This document shows positions 24,353 to 35,065 of a DNA stretch of 64,000 nucleotides, one piece after another. Below the pieces are notes generated by a model that was not told where the DNA came from, searched no databases, and saw only the letters and a list, made by a program, of their open reading frames with translations. The DNA is from a virus: IMG/VR virus record IMGVR_UViG_3300043640_000137, positions 24,525 through 88,524 of that record. One strand, written 5' to 3'. The translations under genes and the position numbers were made by a program. How positions within the stretch are numbered: the stretch's first letter is position 1; every line of letters starts with the position of its first letter.

Positions 24353-25093
24353 CTATGAGGGAATCGAGAGGTTGATCTCGTCGAGCGTCGGGAAGATGCG
24401 GAAGTTGACGGCGGCTTCCTTGAAGAGCGTGACCACGCGATCGAAGTCAGCCTTCCACTTCGGATCGTCGAGACGCATCGCATAGCCGAAGACATGCGTG
24501 ATGCCGGCCTGGACGATGGCTCGGCCGCAATCCATGCACGGAACCCAGGTGCAGTAGAGCGTCGAGCCTTCGAGCGGTGTGCCGCGGCGAGCAGCGAGAT
24601 AGATCGCGTTGCGCTCGGCGTGCTCGGTCCAGAAATACTTCTCGGGACGCTCGTGACGCTCGGGCGCCGTATCGTCGATGCCGGCGGGGAAGCTGTTGTA
24701 TCCGGTCGAGAGCGTGGCGTTGTCCCGGCCAACGATGACGCAGCCGATCTGAGTCGAGCGGTCCTTGCTGCGCAGTGCCGCCACTCGCGCCATCGTCATG
24801 TGGTAGTGATCCCAGTCGGGGATGCGACGGGAGCCGTCATTATTGAAACCGGGCTCGAAGGCGTACTCGGATGGAACGACGGAGTATTCGCTGGCCTCGG
24901 ATGCCGCGAAGCCAGGATGCTCGGCTTTGCAGTCGGGGCATTCCACGGCGCTCATGATGCGGCGCCCGTGCTTGCATAAGTGACGACTTAACGATAGGCC
25001 GACATCGAGACGGTCACGCAAGGTTGCGCCTTCGTCCTCGCACTTGAAGCACTTCAGCGTCAGCCGTGTGCCGTGCTTGCAGAGGAGTGCCAT
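24353..25093 (-). CDS. dCMP deaminase with N-terminal Cys/His repeats
   Basis: 'SKDRSTQIGCVI', 'TGYN', 'HAERNAI', 'PCMDC'. Confidence 0.9.
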   Translation of the reverse strand: MALLCKHGTRLTLKCFKCEDEGATLRDRLDVGLSLSRHLCKHGRRIMSAVECPDCKAEHPGFAASEASEYSVVPSEYAFEPGFNNDGSRRIPDWDHYHMTMARVAALRSKDRSTQIGCVIVGRDNATLSTGYNSFPAGIDDTAPERHERPEKYFWTEHAERNAIYLAARRGTPLEGSTLYCTWVPCMDCGRAIVQAGITHVFGYAMRLDDPKWKADFDRVVTLFKEAAVNFRIFPTLDEINLSIPS

Positions 25094-31199: not shown

Positions 31200-31973
31200 T
31201 TATTGATTGATGGCAGCGAGGTCGTTTAGGTCGAAGGCTGCGGCCTCTTCGTCTTCGATACGTTGCCGCGCAACATCGACATACTTCGACTCTTTTTCGA
31301 TTCCGATGAACCGCCGGCCTTCACGAAAAGCGGCCAATGCCGTTGTTCCCGACCCGATACAACTGTCGAGAATAACGGCGTTACGCTCTGTGTATGTTCG
31401 GATCAGATACCGAAAGAGATCAACCGGCTTTTGAGTCGGATGAAGGCCGACTTGAGAACTGTGCTTCGGGAACAGCAAAATCGACTTCGGGTATTTCAAC
31501 CCGCTAAGGTCATCCGGCGCACGGCCCGAAATCAGCCTCGTCTCGGATACGTTCTTCGTCGATCCGCCCTGCTTATGGTTGGGCCGTCCCGGCGTCATCT
31601 GCGGGTTGTAGGAGCACTGCTTATCGTAAAACACCAGCACGCTTTCATGCTGCTTTAACGGTTGCCGCTTCGCGTTCGCGAAGTTAGTCGGGTTCACTTT
31701 GTCCCAGACCCATTCGTATTTGAACATCTTGGGGTTGGACATGACCAGCGCACTTGTGAACGGCTGGCTCGCCGTTAACACGATTGCCGACCCCGGCTTG
31801 ATAACGCGCTTGTACTGTTCCCACAGCGGCTCGAACTGAACCACCGCGTCCCACGGGCAATACGTAGTTCCGTATGGAAGATCGCAGAGGATCATGTCCA
31901 CGCAAGCGTCGGGAATGCGCCGCATGACGGCAAGGCAGTCGCCTTCGTGGATTTTGTTGATCAAGGCGTCCAT
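31200..31973 (-). CDS. DNA N6-adenine/N4-cytosine methyltransferase (beta class)
   Basis: 'DLPYG', 'HPTQKP', 'LDSCIGSGTT'. Confidence 0.92.
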   Translation of the reverse strand: MDALINKIHEGDCLAVMRRIPDACVDMILCDLPYGTTYCPWDAVVQFEPLWEQYKRVIKPGSAIVLTASQPFTSALVMSNPKMFKYEWVWDKVNPTNFANAKRQPLKQHESVLVFYDKQCSYNPQMTPGRPNHKQGGSTKNVSETRLISGRAPDDLSGLKYPKSILLFPKHSSQVGLHPTQKPVDLFRYLIRTYTERNAVILDSCIGSGTTALAAFREGRRFIGIEKESKYVDVARQRIEDEEAAAFDLNDLAAINQ

Positions 31974-31975
31974 AA

Positions 31976-34900
31976 TCACGCCTTCCGATACCTCTGCCCG
32001 CACCAGCCCTCGACGTTGATGGGGCAGCCGGGCAACCATGCTGGTGTCACCATCATCAAGTCCTCGAACTCTCGCTGCGTGCCGTGGCTCGCTTCGGCTT
32101 CCGAGATCACTTCGTCATGGACGGTGAGCACGATCGGATACTGCGCAACCTCGACGCGGCCCATCGCTTCGGCCAGGATGTCGCGCGAGATCGCCTGCAC
32201 CACGTTCTCCGTGAGCATGCCGCCGTATGTGCGAATGAAATTCCAACGGCCGCCGAGCTTGCTATCCCGGCCCCAATAGCCGATCTGCTTCTTGTTCCAG
32301 GGCTTGCCGTCGCGGCCGAACATCTGAACAGTGTCGAGCCGTGGCTCGCGATACCAGAGCTTGCGGCCGTTCGGCAGCTTGCACGAAAGCCATGTGCCCG
32401 CTGCATCTGTCTCGACCTGATACGTGATGCCGTTGAAGTCGAAGGCTCGGCCGGGATACATGACCGCGCTGACCGCGGCTTCTTCGAGCCCGTACCAAAG
32501 CAGCTTCACTTTCGGGAAGCTCTCGCGATAACCGTTGACGAGAAACTGTGCCTGCTCGTCGGTGAGGATGACCTTGTAGTCTTTCTTCGCCTGCTCTTGC
32601 AGCCGTTGCCAGCCCATCTGGTATCCGCAGTTGCTCGCGCAGAGCGGAAGGCCACCGCCGGGCGATCTAACGAAGAAGCGGTGCCGCGGCCCGCATTCGA
32701 TCAGATCGTACACGTTCACGGGAGCGTCGGTTGAGCACTTGCTGCGATCGCGTCGCCATGCGGACGTTGCCGATTTCGTAATTGCCGTCGTTGTTGACGC
32801 GATCAATTTCGAGAGAAGGGTTGTTCCAGCCGGCAACCATTTGAATGTCGATAAGGAAGTTGCGCCGATCGAGCCAGTCGATGCAGACTTGGATTCCTCG
32901 CGCGCCGTAGTCGATGAAGCCAGGGTTATCGGAGTTGAGGCATCGGGAGAGCATACCGGCGTGGCGAGAAGCCCACATATTGCGGAGAGTGTCGTCAGGC
33001 ATGACGTCGCCGTAGCCTTCGTTCTCTCGTATCCACTTCGCAGTCGCTTTCTTAGCGCACGCATTGCATCGCGTGGTGCGAGCGCTTCGAAGGTTTGAGA
33101 TGTTGACCTGCGTTTCTGAACCGCAAACGCACACGGCGTAGACAGCGGTGATCCCACCGCGCGGGCCTGCTCGGAAGCCGGCAATCGTGAGATCGCCCAA
33201 TCGTGAACCGACTGTTGGTATCTCGCGCTCGCGTTGACGACCGCAGACGCGGGCACCCAATCGTCGGGGGTCATCATCATATGATCCGGCGTAACCCCAA
33301 TCCCCGCTAAGCGGGTTGTCGGTTTCTTTCCTTGGTAATGAGGACCGTCGTGGTTCACCCATTCTTCACCGTCCCATACCTTGTCAGCCGTGGTCACATC
33401 GACGATACGAATCCAACCTCGATCCGTAAGGACTTCGGTGTCGGCCTCGAAGCAGCCGAGGATCGTGATCTTGCCTAGCTGCCGCTCGTTCGGGTCTTTC
33501 TCTTTGTCGATCGGCCGGTTGTAGAGCTTCTGCGCCATGACGCAGTAGATGTCTGGGCCTTCTTTGCGATCCGACTTCAGGAAAGCTTCGAGCGCGTCTT
33601 CCTCCCCGGCGAGCCACATCGTCACGCGCGCCTCGATCGCGCTGAAGTCGGCGACGCGGTAGGTCTTGCCCTTGGCCGCGATGAACATGCCGCGAAGCGC
33701 AGACGCGATTGCGTCCATCGGATCGCCGTAGAACATCGTGAGCAGATCGGCGCTGCGGCACTTGATGGCCGCGATCAGGGGCTCGATGCCCTTCTTGACG
33801 ATCTTCGGGTTGCCACGGGGGAAGTTGTGCGGCTGCACGAGGCGCCCAGCCCAGCGGCCGGTGCCGGCGCCGTGGTACTGCATCATCCCGCGAACACGGC
33901 CGTCCTCGCACATGCAGTCGATCATGCGCTTCAGCTTCTTCGTCGAGCCGCGCGACAACTGCTGGCGGATACGGAGGACGCGCTTGACCTTGGGCCACGC
34001 CTCGTTGTTCTCGCTGTCGTCCAGCGGTGGGCCGCCGTTGTCGCCGATACCGGCGATCTCGTCCTCGTCCTCTTCCGGCTCTTCGTCGAAGTCTTCGTCG
34101 CCCTGGTCGATCGCTTGCTCGACGATATCCTTCGATAAGCTTTCGAGAATCACGCCGTTCTTCGCCGCCCACTCTTTGATCTTCGCGACTTGGTTGCCGG
34201 TCGTAACCTCGCCGCCCGTCAGAGTCATCAACTCGGCGGTGAGTCTCGTCTCGACGTCGTGAATGATGCTGAGCGCGGATTGGACCGCTTCGATATCAAC
34301 GCGAACGCCACGCCAGTTGATCTTTTGGTCGAGTACCCAGATCACGTACTCGGCGTCGTCCATGTCGCCTATCGTTTGGCCGAGAAGGTCTTCCGCCTCG
34401 ACGTCTTGATCGCAGTAGTCCTGAAGCGCCTGGAAGAGCGTACGGTCGTCGCCCCATTCGCTCGGCGTCGGCCCGTTGGCATCCGCCCATAGCGTCGGGA
34501 TCGGCGGCAGGTTGAGGACCGCTTGGTAATGTGCATCCTTCTGCTCTTGCGTTGGCTTGGGCTTCTTCGGCAGCGGGTGAACGCCGTGCTGCTCAGCCCA
34601 CGCGAGGATGTCCGCCTTCAGCGGCTTGCGCGGTTTGCTGAGCTTCTGAAGGAGGTACTTGCCGTGCTTATCTTTCTGGACGTCGAGATCGAGAACGCGG
34701 CCGACTTCATCCAGGCCGAGAGGCAAGGCGCGTTGTGCGCAGCGAGCTTGCGTGTCGTACCAGCGCTTCGGCATCGGAATGCCGAGCTTCTTGTGCAGTT
34801 GGTTCAGCCAGATCGACTGCTCGAACAGCGCGTTGTGCGCCTCGATCGTGCCGCCCTTCTCTACGAAGTCGATGAGTTCTTGGGGGAACGGCAGGCCCGG

Positions 34901-35065
34901 CTTCCACCGGCCACGTTTACCGCCCGGCAGCTTATACGACATCGTTTGGATGTGCGTGGACGGATGCTCGGAATACTTCACGGCGCCGACGTTTTTAAGA
35001 TCAGCCTCACTGCCGGTCTCAAAATCGACGGTGGCGCGATGAGCGCTGAGGAGCCGGTTGCTCAC
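31976..35065 (-). CDS. Family A DNA polymerase (3'-5' exonuclease plus polymerase) with intein
   Basis: Exo 'VDFET' and 'HNALFE'; 'TGRWAG', motif A 'ADFSAIEAR', motif B 'RQLGK...LG|CGYQMG' split by the intein, motif C 'VHDE'. Confidence 0.95.
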   Translation of the reverse strand: MSNRLLSAHRATVDFETGSEADLKNVGAVKYSEHPSTHIQTMSYKLPGGKRGRWKPGLPFPQELIDFVEKGGTIEAHNALFEQSIWLNQLHKKLGIPMPKRWYDTQARCAQRALPLGLDEVGRVLDLDVQKDKHGKYLLQKLSKPRKPLKADILAWAEQHGVHPLPKKPKPTQEQKDAHYQAVLNLPPIPTLWADANGPTPSEWGDDRTLFQALQDYCDQDVEAEDLLGQTIGDMDDAEYVIWVLDQKINWRGVRVDIEAVQSALSIIHDVETRLTAELMTLTGGEVTTGNQVAKIKEWAAKNGVILESLSKDIVEQAIDQGDEDFDEEPEEDEDEIAGIGDNGGPPLDDSENNEAWPKVKRVLRIRQQLSRGSTKKLKRMIDCMCEDGRVRGMMQYHGAGTGRWAGRLVQPHNFPRGNPKIVKKGIEPLIAAIKCRSADLLTMFYGDPMDAIASALRGMFIAAKGKTYRVADFSAIEARVTMWLAGEEDALEAFLKSDRKEGPDIYCVMAQKLYNRPIDKEKDPNERQLGKITILGCFEADTEVLTDRGWIRIVDVTTADKVWDGEEWVNHDGPHYQGKKPTTRLAGIGVTPDHMMMTPDDWVPASAVVNASARYQQSVHDWAISRLPASEQARAVGSPLSTPCAFAVQKRRSTSQTFEALAPRDAMRALRKRLRSGYERTKATATSCLTTLSAICGLLATPVCSPDASTPITLASSTTAREESKSASTGSIGATSLSTFKWLPAGTTLLSKLIASTTTAITKSATSAWRRDRSKCSTDAPVNVYDLIECGPRHRFFVRSPGGGLPLCASNCGYQMGWQRLQEQAKKDYKVILTDEQAQFLVNGYRESFPKVKLLWYGLEEAAVSAVMYPGRAFDFNGITYQVETDAAGTWLSCKLPNGRKLWYREPRLDTVQMFGRDGKPWNKKQIGYWGRDSKLGGRWNFIRTYGGMLTENVVQAISRDILAEAMGRVEVAQYPIVLTVHDEVISEAEASHGTQREFEDLMMVTPAWLPGCPINVEGWCGQRYRKA
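32630..33454 (-). mobile_element. Intein (275 aa) in polymerase motif B
   Basis: Starts CFEADTEVLTDRGW; block B 'VTPDH'; block F 'VYDL'; ends CASN followed by extein Cys. Removing it restores 'ILGCGYQMG'. Confidence 0.92.
32667..33362 (-). CDS. HNH-type homing endonuclease nested out of frame inside the intein
   Basis: 'CVCG..NLRS..T.RCNAC', 'MLSRCLN..YGARGIQVC..W', 'EIDRVNNDGNYEIGNVRMATRSQQVLNRR'. The start codon is uncertain. Confidence 0.85.
   Translation of the reverse strand: MGEPRRSSLPRKETDNPLSGDWGYAGSYDDDPRRLGARVCGRQREREIPTVGSRLGDLTIAGFRAGPRGGITAVYAVCVCGSETQVNISNLRSARTTRCNACAKKATAKWIRENEGYGDVMPDDTLRNMWASRHAGMLSRCLNSDNPGFIDYGARGIQVCIDWLDRRNFLIDIQMVAGWNNPSLEIDRVNNDGNYEIGNVRMATRSQQVLNRRSRERVRSDRMRAAAPLLR

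Follow-up and report, generated by a model that had tools for sequence, protein, structure and literature searches.

In textbook inteins the homing endonuclease is an in-frame domain of the intein itself. Can the two instead be separate products of one stretch of DNA, read in two frames? The question is raised by an intein-bearing gene for a family-A (PolA-type) DNA polymerase in a window of 64,000 nucleotides, positions 24,525 to 88,524 of the IMG/VR virus record IMGVR_UViG_3300043640_000137 (an 88.5 kb, metagenome-derived virus genome with a completeness of 100% according to CheckV). An earlier note, made from the letters of the window only, had described a polymerase frame that stays open through an 825-nt intein and, over the same nucleotides, a second open reading frame (ORF) for an HNH-type endonuclease. 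Our results indicate that the locus is quite probably a composite selfish element, in which a mini-intein at the presumed motif B of the essential PolA gene carries a separate nuclease gene, overprinted in the +2 frame, for its homing.

On recheck, the coordinates given earlier for the polymerase ORF, the intein and the nested ORF were all correct (Table 1), and the polymerase frame indeed runs across the whole intein without a stop. PF00476 (DNA_pol_A) matches polymerase residues 358-536 (E 9.2e-12), ending one residue before the intein. The junctions read ..GKITILG before Cys1 and, after the terminal ASN, CGYQMG.., an insertion site that we take, from what is known of PolA motifs, to be polymerase motif B. 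The nested ORF lies on the same strand, offset by +2 from the polymerase frame (equivalent to −1; frame 3), from an ATG at 33362 to a stop at 32669..32667, and all the motifs for which it had been called a nuclease are present in that frame. When the polymerase gene was compared with phages by blastn, the matches spanned at most 13% of the query.

An out-of-frame nuclease could be produced by an assembly or sequencing artefact, with a nuclease that is truly in frame and two compensating indel errors around it; the record is metagenome-derived, and the sole sequencing run with the stretch is probably its own source. A Logan contig, a second assembly of that run, was identical over 32400-33700 with 0 mismatches and 0 gaps, although it represents a second assembler's result on what is probably the source sample and not independent data. 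Independent sequences were available in the relatives. We surveyed the best 80 of 243 IMG/VR relatives, ranked by likeness to the N-terminal domain of the intein, together with other loci (numbered L below), for a total of 97 intein units. The nuclease was found in the +2 frame in 57 units, in the +1 frame in 31 and in the host frame in none; it was absent from the remaining 9. The host frame was stop-free over the nuclease-matching stretch in 85 of the 88 nuclease-bearing units, while the third frame, which serves as a control, was stop-free in 0/88 (mean stops 8.7 for the +1 units, 12.1 for the +2 units). Moreover, the nuclease lies out of frame within a polymerase coding sequence (CDS) that has no stop in 7/7 named or window polymerases: it occupies the +2 frame of the annotated polymerase CDS in the Salmonella phages BPS11T2 and Ent2 and in EBPR siphovirus 2, and the +1 frame in Caulobacter phage RW, APSE-1 and Streptococcus phage Javan255. 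BPS11T2 and Ent2 (both cultured Salmonella phages) and EBPR siphovirus 2 were sequenced independently and share the offset and the start site of the window. These results make an artefact so improbable as to be negligible, and the overprinted layout is confirmed as real. The claim of the earlier note thus stood up both to the search for sequencing frameshifts, of which we saw none, and to the comparison of homologous inteins, which keep the host frame open and the nuclease outside it.

We then compared the open host frame with what synonymous codon choice would give. The 543-nt nuclease core of the window contains 0 stops in the host frame, compared with 6 in the third frame. When synonymous codons were shuffled so that the nuclease protein was kept, the host frame of the window was open in 518/20000 shuffles (0.026), and that of seven other loci in only 0 to 45/20000 (at most 0.0022). 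Pairs of unique units at least 70% identical in DNA (4 in the +2 group, 2 or 3 in the +1 group) gave a ratio of nonsynonymous to synonymous differences per site (pN/pS) of 0.20 (+2 group) and 0.15 (+1 group) for the nuclease frame; the corresponding host-frame values were 1.20 and 3.95. Of the differences in these pairs, 58-74% fall at third positions of the nuclease frame. This third-position excess declines smoothly with divergence (988 + 325 pairs). In concordance with these figures, amino-acid identity over the same nucleotides was ~0.45 for the nuclease reading and ~0.23 for the host-frame reading, and it was higher in the nuclease frame in 988/988 and 325/325 pairs, as well as in 44/44 pairs involving the window. 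In the relatives, then, the nuclease frame is under purifying selection and the host frame is kept only stop-free, so that selection of a different kind is seen in each frame of the pair and codon-position conservation favours the nuclease frame, as the earlier note had anticipated. We found no host-frame constraint beyond stop avoidance, and the hydrophobic fraction of the host-frame spacer was not lower than in synonymous shuffles (0.286 observed, 0.279 null; 13/72 units below the null). Some features of the data weigh against this part of the argument. The surveyed loci were picked by likeness to the intein family and include near-duplicates, with 72 unique units among the 85 in which the host frame is open; only 6 pairs underlie the pN/pS figures; and the alignment used for the identities was guided by the nuclease frame, which biases them toward that frame.

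The same data bear on the possibility that the nested ORF is a relic that is decaying and has ceased to be expressed or active, be it in the window copy or throughout its lineage; what is left would in effect be a mini-intein with a long spacer. In favour of this are the weak start signals, the loss of the penultimate His of the intein (see below), which hints at drift in the window copy, and the loss of the nuclease in 9/97 units. Against these points, the window ORF is intact over 231 codons and keeps every residue that is invariant in the family, its relatives are under purifying selection in the nuclease frame, and the control third frame is never open. We therefore regard decay as improbable.

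Table 1. Features of the intein-bearing polymerase locus, in window coordinates, and positions of the split forms in their own loci.
Feature	Coordinates	Strand	Description
Family-A (PolA-type) DNA polymerase precursor ORF	35065..31976	-	1029 aa, stop-free throughout; from the ORF list
Intein	33454..32630	-	275 codons = polymerase aa 538-812; Cys1 to ..Ala-Ser-Asn, then Cys+1
N-terminal splicing domain	33155..33454	-	intein aa 1-100; Cys1, WDGEEW, block B TPDH aa 55-58; pLDDT (predicted local distance difference test) 91-98
Host-frame linker	32720..33154	-	intein aa 101-245; Ser/Thr/Ala-rich read-through spacer, predicted disordered; pLDDT 42-52
C-terminal splicing domain	32630..32719	-	intein aa 246-275; VNVYDL..GPRHRF..CASN; pLDDT 88-95
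Nested ORF, putative PacI-like/HNH-like homing endonuclease	33362..32667	-	231 codons; phrog_374 E 1.4e-31
Proposed start region of the nested ORF	33360..33370	-	Shine-Dalgarno-like GGTGA 33370..33366; nested-frame TGA 33368..33366; ATG 33362..33360
Nested-ORF leader, aa 1-50	33213..33362	-	probably unstructured; block pLDDT 44, 47, 43, 52, 64; overlaps the intein N-domain
Nuclease core, aa 51-214	32721..33212	-	CxC..CxxC zinc-ribbon-like N-part, YGARGI, predicted beta-beta-alpha unit with D187 R188, Y195, N199, N211
Split forms of the intein	L162:2532-4088; L091:1272-2998; L102:2992-4191		

How would a protein be made from the nested frame? In the window a TGA two codons ahead of the ATG closes this frame, which bars ribosomes already reading in it from entering further upstream. 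The ATG lies across the Glu-Trp codons in the conserved WDGEEW of the intein, and the Shine-Dalgarno-like GGTGA, 3 nt upstream, is formed by the preceding Gly-Glu codons. When ATG, GTG and TTG were considered, the only start codons upstream of the nuclease core were this ATG and a TTG at codon 35. The start site is conserved: it is occupied by ATG in 30 and by GTG in 11 of 46 unique +2 units (41/46), and in some of these a second ATG follows two codons on, after GGAGGA-like purines. The leader that begins at this site, of ~46-48 codons and predicted to be unstructured, shares its DNA with the N-terminal splicing domain. Most +1 units start at the nuclease core, ~67 codons from Cys1, where the start overlaps Gly-Trp-Lys/Arg codons and comes after GAAGG-like purines; their first start codons are ATG in 18, GTG in 9 and TTG in 1, and one unit has no start.

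The earlier note had left the choice between internal initiation and frameshifting open. Programmed ribosomal frameshifting from the polymerase frame would yield a fusion of N-extein, N-intein and nuclease and not a free protein; an offset of +2 is what a −1 shift would read, and the leader contains ..GGA AAG AAA.. with a 5-bp hairpin after it. However, a canonical −1 heptamer (X_XXY_YYZ) is absent from the window leader and occurs in 5/46 +2 units, each time at a different place, in 31/88 units the nuclease is in the +1 frame and usually has its start codon directly at the core, and the local RNA fold around the start is unremarkable (z −0.85). Because no slippery heptamer is conserved, both the +1 and the +2 frames are used and the RNA fold is ordinary, internal initiation is favoured, and we give frameshifting very little credence. 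Judging from these signals, the nuclease is most likely translated by internal initiation at ATG 33362. Some observations count against this assignment: the GGTGA is weak and lies very close to the ATG, a stop follows the conserved start site in 5/46 +2 units (in those copies the nuclease therefore starts elsewhere), and no RNA run was listed among those containing the stretch.

Next, we examined the protein itself. The best PHROG match of the nested ORF is phrog_374 (Table 1), followed by phrog_3377 (2.3e-21) and phrog_2081 (1.5e-16); all of them are named 'HNH endonuclease', names that are annotations and not tests. Beyond phrog_374, three PHROG nuclease families match at 1e-16 to 1e-21. Relatives were found by tblastn in 789 phage records, and a metagenome protein (P0001) is 70% identical. 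An AlphaFold2 model built on an alignment of 20 relatives gave block-mean pLDDT values of 74-96, mostly above 85, over aa 51-210, and the nuclease profile match begins at aa 46, close to the point where the poorly predicted leader ends. Within the core, R155, R188, Y195 and N199 are invariant in 145/145 family members, be they nested, split or free-standing, N211 is conserved in 141/145, and the CxC..CxxC cluster is kept in at least 139/145. The model places strands at 185-188 and 200-203 and a helix at 205-210; N211 sits in this helix after the strands. Arg188 closes the first beta strand, a place that belongs to the catalytic His in canonical HNH enzymes, and an Arg is found there in 145/145 members. 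Y195, in the loop between the two strands, is equally fixed and may correspond to the Tyr of PacI.

The label 'HNH-type endonuclease' given in the earlier note holds only in part. Membership of a phage nuclease family is well supported by phrog_374, but a canonical HNH assignment is not: Pfam HNH families matched 0/20 family members at E values up to 1, and the His is replaced throughout. An Arg in place of the catalytic His together with an invariant loop Tyr makes the label loose. In PacI, a member of group 20 of the His-Me finger superfamily, the catalytic His is missing as well, and its part is played by a loop Tyr (Jablonska et al., PMC5714182; PDB 3m7k). Since Arg188 and Y195 are both fixed in our family, we consider it a candidate PacI-like His-Me finger. 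Judging from the model, the two would have in common a beta-beta-alpha unit without a catalytic His, a conserved loop Tyr between the strands and zinc-binding Cys clusters. They differ in that PacI is a restriction enzyme and ours an intein-nested gene, that HMMER detects no sequence similarity between them, and that the structural match is weak: 3m7k_A was the second-ranked VIA-align match and the best nuclease match to the model, with Z 5.2 and a root-mean-square deviation of 3.0 over 80 residues (model residues 116-214).

Several results pull against a nuclease of this kind. The Z score of the PacI match lies below the trust level of VIA-align itself, a Foldseek search of the model against the PDB returned nothing at E 0.001 or better, and we found no report of nuclease activity for any family member. 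Congruently, HMMER searches of PDB sequences with the nested ORF retrieved no solved relative, and searches of Pfam and NCBIfam gave no useful match. The ESM Atlas offered unnamed viral clusters at 0.91-0.95, and clusters with NUMOD, AP2 or DUF723 below 0.9, which are leads only. The nested protein might then be something other than a homing nuclease, either a DNA-binding or regulatory protein or a nuclease directed against host or competitor DNA, as the family-wide lack of the catalytic His and of both Pfam HNH matches and solved sequence relatives would allow. However, the family occupies the places of homing endonucleases (inside inteins, between split halves and as free-standing phage genes), the nuclease moves with the intein between sites, and PacI shows that a His-Me finger without the His can cut DNA (PMC5714182). 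On balance a role outside homing seems unlikely. We favour a putative homing endonuclease, which would cut the element-free allele and so drive the copying of the element.

We also studied what the polymerase frame makes of the same DNA. A model of the host-frame intein, built with an alignment of 41 homologous inteins, was confident over aa 1-100 and 241-275 and poor over aa 101-240, which have no secondary structure (pLDDT values in Table 1). In a Foldseek search with it, the DnaX mini-intein 7cfv came first (E 3.5e-4, prob 1.00), ahead of gp41-1, Ssp DnaB, Npu DnaE and others, and every row listed was an intein, bacterial intein-like, Vint or hedgehog (Hint-type) domain, in support of a Hint fold; no Pfam or NCBIfam model scored above threshold on the host-frame intein. 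Across the 41 aligned inteins C1, W27, D28, G29, W32, T55 and H58 are invariant in the N-domain and D250, G255, R257 and N275 in the C-domain. As the earlier note had remarked, the central stretch is rich in Ser, Thr and Ala, which make up 46% of aa 101-240 compared with 22% in both splicing parts. With a disordered spacer between ordered Hint halves, the polymerase frame yields a mini-intein with a long disordered spacer, and we take the host intein to be of class-1 type.

The description of normal splicing blocks at both ends proved right for the N-terminus and only partly so for the C-terminus. Both splicing nucleophiles are present, Cys1 at 33454..33452 and Cys+1 after Asn275, and TPDH provides the Thr-x-x-His of block B. 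The C-terminal His-Asn dipeptide is missing, as Asn275 is preceded by Ser (..CASN). At least 90% of the 41 aligned inteins have a penultimate His, and with Ser274 in its place the efficiency of splicing may differ, which counts against our reading. Inteins without a penultimate His can nonetheless splice, and the Ser-Asn ending is shared with three relatives (L122, L111 and L166). Since the gene is essential and its host frame intact, in a genome with a completeness rating of 100%, we infer that the precursor splices and restores the polymerase. As a separate observation, the polymerase-frame translation over intein aa 19-230 (32765-33400, minus strand), spacer included, matches phrog_93 'endonuclease' (E 8.1e-13). 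This family appears to have been built partly from meaningless host-frame read-throughs of such inteins, so its name may mislead.

To place the nuclease in its wider family we took the best 80 of 579 metagenome relatives and 3 IMG/VR loci from a single-protein search. In 80 of these 83 loci the gene looks free-standing, short contigs in which a host ORF could have been cut off being included in that number, and the other 3 are nested cases, in two PolA genes and in one further ORF with two such inteins. In a FastTree phylogeny of 145 nucleases, all 45 +2 nested nucleases and one split form make up one clade (Shimodaira-Hasegawa-like support 97) that excludes 70 free-standing ones, and the +1 nested nucleases fall into a few groups. 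The tree, made with FastTree only and without bootstrap, left out 10 of the 80 free-standing matches (with a stop, duplicated or shorter than 130 aa) as well as duplicate nested rows.

The inteins of this lineage occupy more than one site. Some lie as in the window, at ..ELA|CGY.. or ..ILG|CGY..; others lie four codons upstream of it, at ..GKT|C(I/V)LGLGY.. (Salmonella phages, L011 and others), or at several neighbouring points of the second polymerase motif ..YGGKL|CEN..QA..RD.. (APSE-1, RW, L013), and yet others are in non-polymerase ORFs. The polymerases of L101, L113, L121 and L123 contain two inteins, one at motif B with a +2 nuclease and one at the ..YGGKL|CEN.. site with a +1 nuclease. 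Locus L064 (3038-6838) is a 1267-aa non-polymerase metagenome ORF with two homologous inteins, each with a +1 nested nuclease. One of the 9 units without a nuclease, L105, has a 180-aa mini-intein at the site used in the window. At the other extreme, in 3 of the 88 nuclease-bearing units (L091, L102 and L162) the host frame is broken and the nuclease gene stands after the ORF for N-extein and N-intein; it is followed by an ORF for C-intein and C-extein in L162 and L091, and in L102 by a downstream host-frame ORF. The suggestion of the earlier note that a free-standing endonuclease gene had invaded a mini-intein is thereby supported, since the family is mostly free-standing, a mini-intein exists at the same site and split forms occur.

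As judged from these comparisons, the layout is common to inteins that form a monophyletic set and lie at several sites of the polymerase as well as in other genes. Consistent with homing, the intein is patchy, its N-domain being found in 192 phage records compared with 1652 that hold a homologue of the N-extein (Salmonella phages account for roughly 145 copies of the intein), it has several insertion sites and the nuclease is inherited together with it. A bolder reading, which we put forward only tentatively and would not ourselves expect to hold in full, is that of an old and stable composite mobile element: one +2 clade would have moved with its intein among at least three PolA positions and other genes, occasionally splitting, and its nuclease would be the first homing family with a PacI-type Tyr mechanism. 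If true, it would provide a living series linking mini-inteins, overprinted inteins and 'fractured genes'.

For the composite element in the PolA gene, we propose the following mechanism. The polymerase messenger RNA would be read in two ways. Ribosomes in frame 0 would make the precursor, from which splicing would give active polymerase, and a minority would start internally at ATG 33362, after the GGTGA, to produce a free nuclease of 231 aa; both start signals would be supplied by the conserved Asp-Gly-Glu-Glu-Trp codons of the intein. In a mixed infection the nuclease, probably a PacI-like one-metal His-Me finger with loop Y195 replacing the absent catalytic His, would cut intein-less polymerase alleles near motif B, and repair from an intein-bearing genome would copy the intein and the nuclease gene together. 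In such a layout homing and splicing would be done by different proteins.

The overprinted-intein layout as such is already in print, only since 2025-26 and for other nuclease families. Gosselin et al. (bioRxiv 2025) describe inteins of actinophages in which a gene resembling that of endonuclease VII lies in 'frame 3', and also antisense endonucleases. Like the window, these have a contiguous intein, a nuclease slot that reads through unstructured in the host frame and a separate nuclease ORF on the same strand in 'frame 3', and the origin proposed for them is the same, a free-standing endonuclease gene entering a mini-intein; the defining arrangement, a same-strand nuclease ORF in another frame between the splicing halves of an open host frame, is present in the window. 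The nuclease differs, theirs matching T4 endonuclease VII (1E7D) and ours giving only a weak phrog_1035 match (E 0.0076), and so does the polymerase host, given there as Pol III alpha and PolA here. Set against the actinophage inteins, the family of the window also occurs in +1 and +2 versions and in split forms.

Phillips, DeSimone and Gogarten (bioRxiv 10.64898/2026.09.14.751524) report a cyanobacterial dnaX intein with a LAGLIDADG endonuclease in the +2 frame and credit Gorbalenya 1998 with the first proposal. That system resembles ours in the +2 overlap, the low-confidence in-frame region, the Shine-Dalgarno-like motif before the nested start and the omega values, low for the nested and high for the host frame; it differs in its LAGLIDADG nuclease and cellular host, compared with a PacI-like/HNH-like phage family in phage polymerases. 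The ShiLan domain (Arsenault et al. 2025, PMC11855218) is an out-of-frame HNH gene within an in-frame insertion in a phage methylase. It too is a hidden third-frame nuclease ORF in an insertion that is read through without stops, but the insertion has no splicing domains, whereas the overlap in the window is flanked by clear Hint halves. In fractured genes (Dassa et al. 2009, PMC2677866), a free-standing endonuclease gene lies between the halves of a split intein. The separate endonuclease ORF at the intein slot is a shared trait, and the three split members of our family have this form, but the nucleases of the fractured genes are GIY-YIG and Vsr-like, and the host frame of the window is continuous, so its intein is cis-splicing. 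In the literature that we searched, to which the supplementary tables of the 2025 preprint did not belong, we found no paper on Jersey-like, APSE or related phages that describes an out-of-frame nuclease for their PolA inteins. The window thus adds a PolA intein with a different nuclease family to a recently described, non-canonical kind of intein.

The relatives with an overprinted nuclease include widely sequenced Jersey-like phages of Salmonella and E. coli and the aphid-symbiont phage APSE-1, and the coliphage members would suit tests of internal initiation inside a translated gene and of a possible tyrosine-dependent homing nuclease. The contiguous, split and mini forms of one intein lineage bear on how endonucleases are gained and on the origin of split inteins. 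There are also consequences for annotation, as existing records call such inteins splicing-only or miss the nested gene. The GenBank record of Ent2 labels the intein only as 'encoding splicing domains'. The APSE-1 record of 1999 (AF157835.1; L008:3431-3853) lists an ORF, P46, inside the polymerase gene P45, with no function; P46 is part of a +1-frame nuclease ORF of the window's family. Relatives of the nuclease also lie under dUTPase features in an Enterococcus phage and a Clostridioides phage (ON506928.1 and PP767789.1, respectively), which may be further nuclease genes hidden inside other genes.

Finally, if the next ORF on the minus strand of the window, 32039..31200 (279 aa), began at its first ATG, it would share 64 nt (31976-32039) with the end of the polymerase gene; an internal Met slightly downstream is the likelier start.

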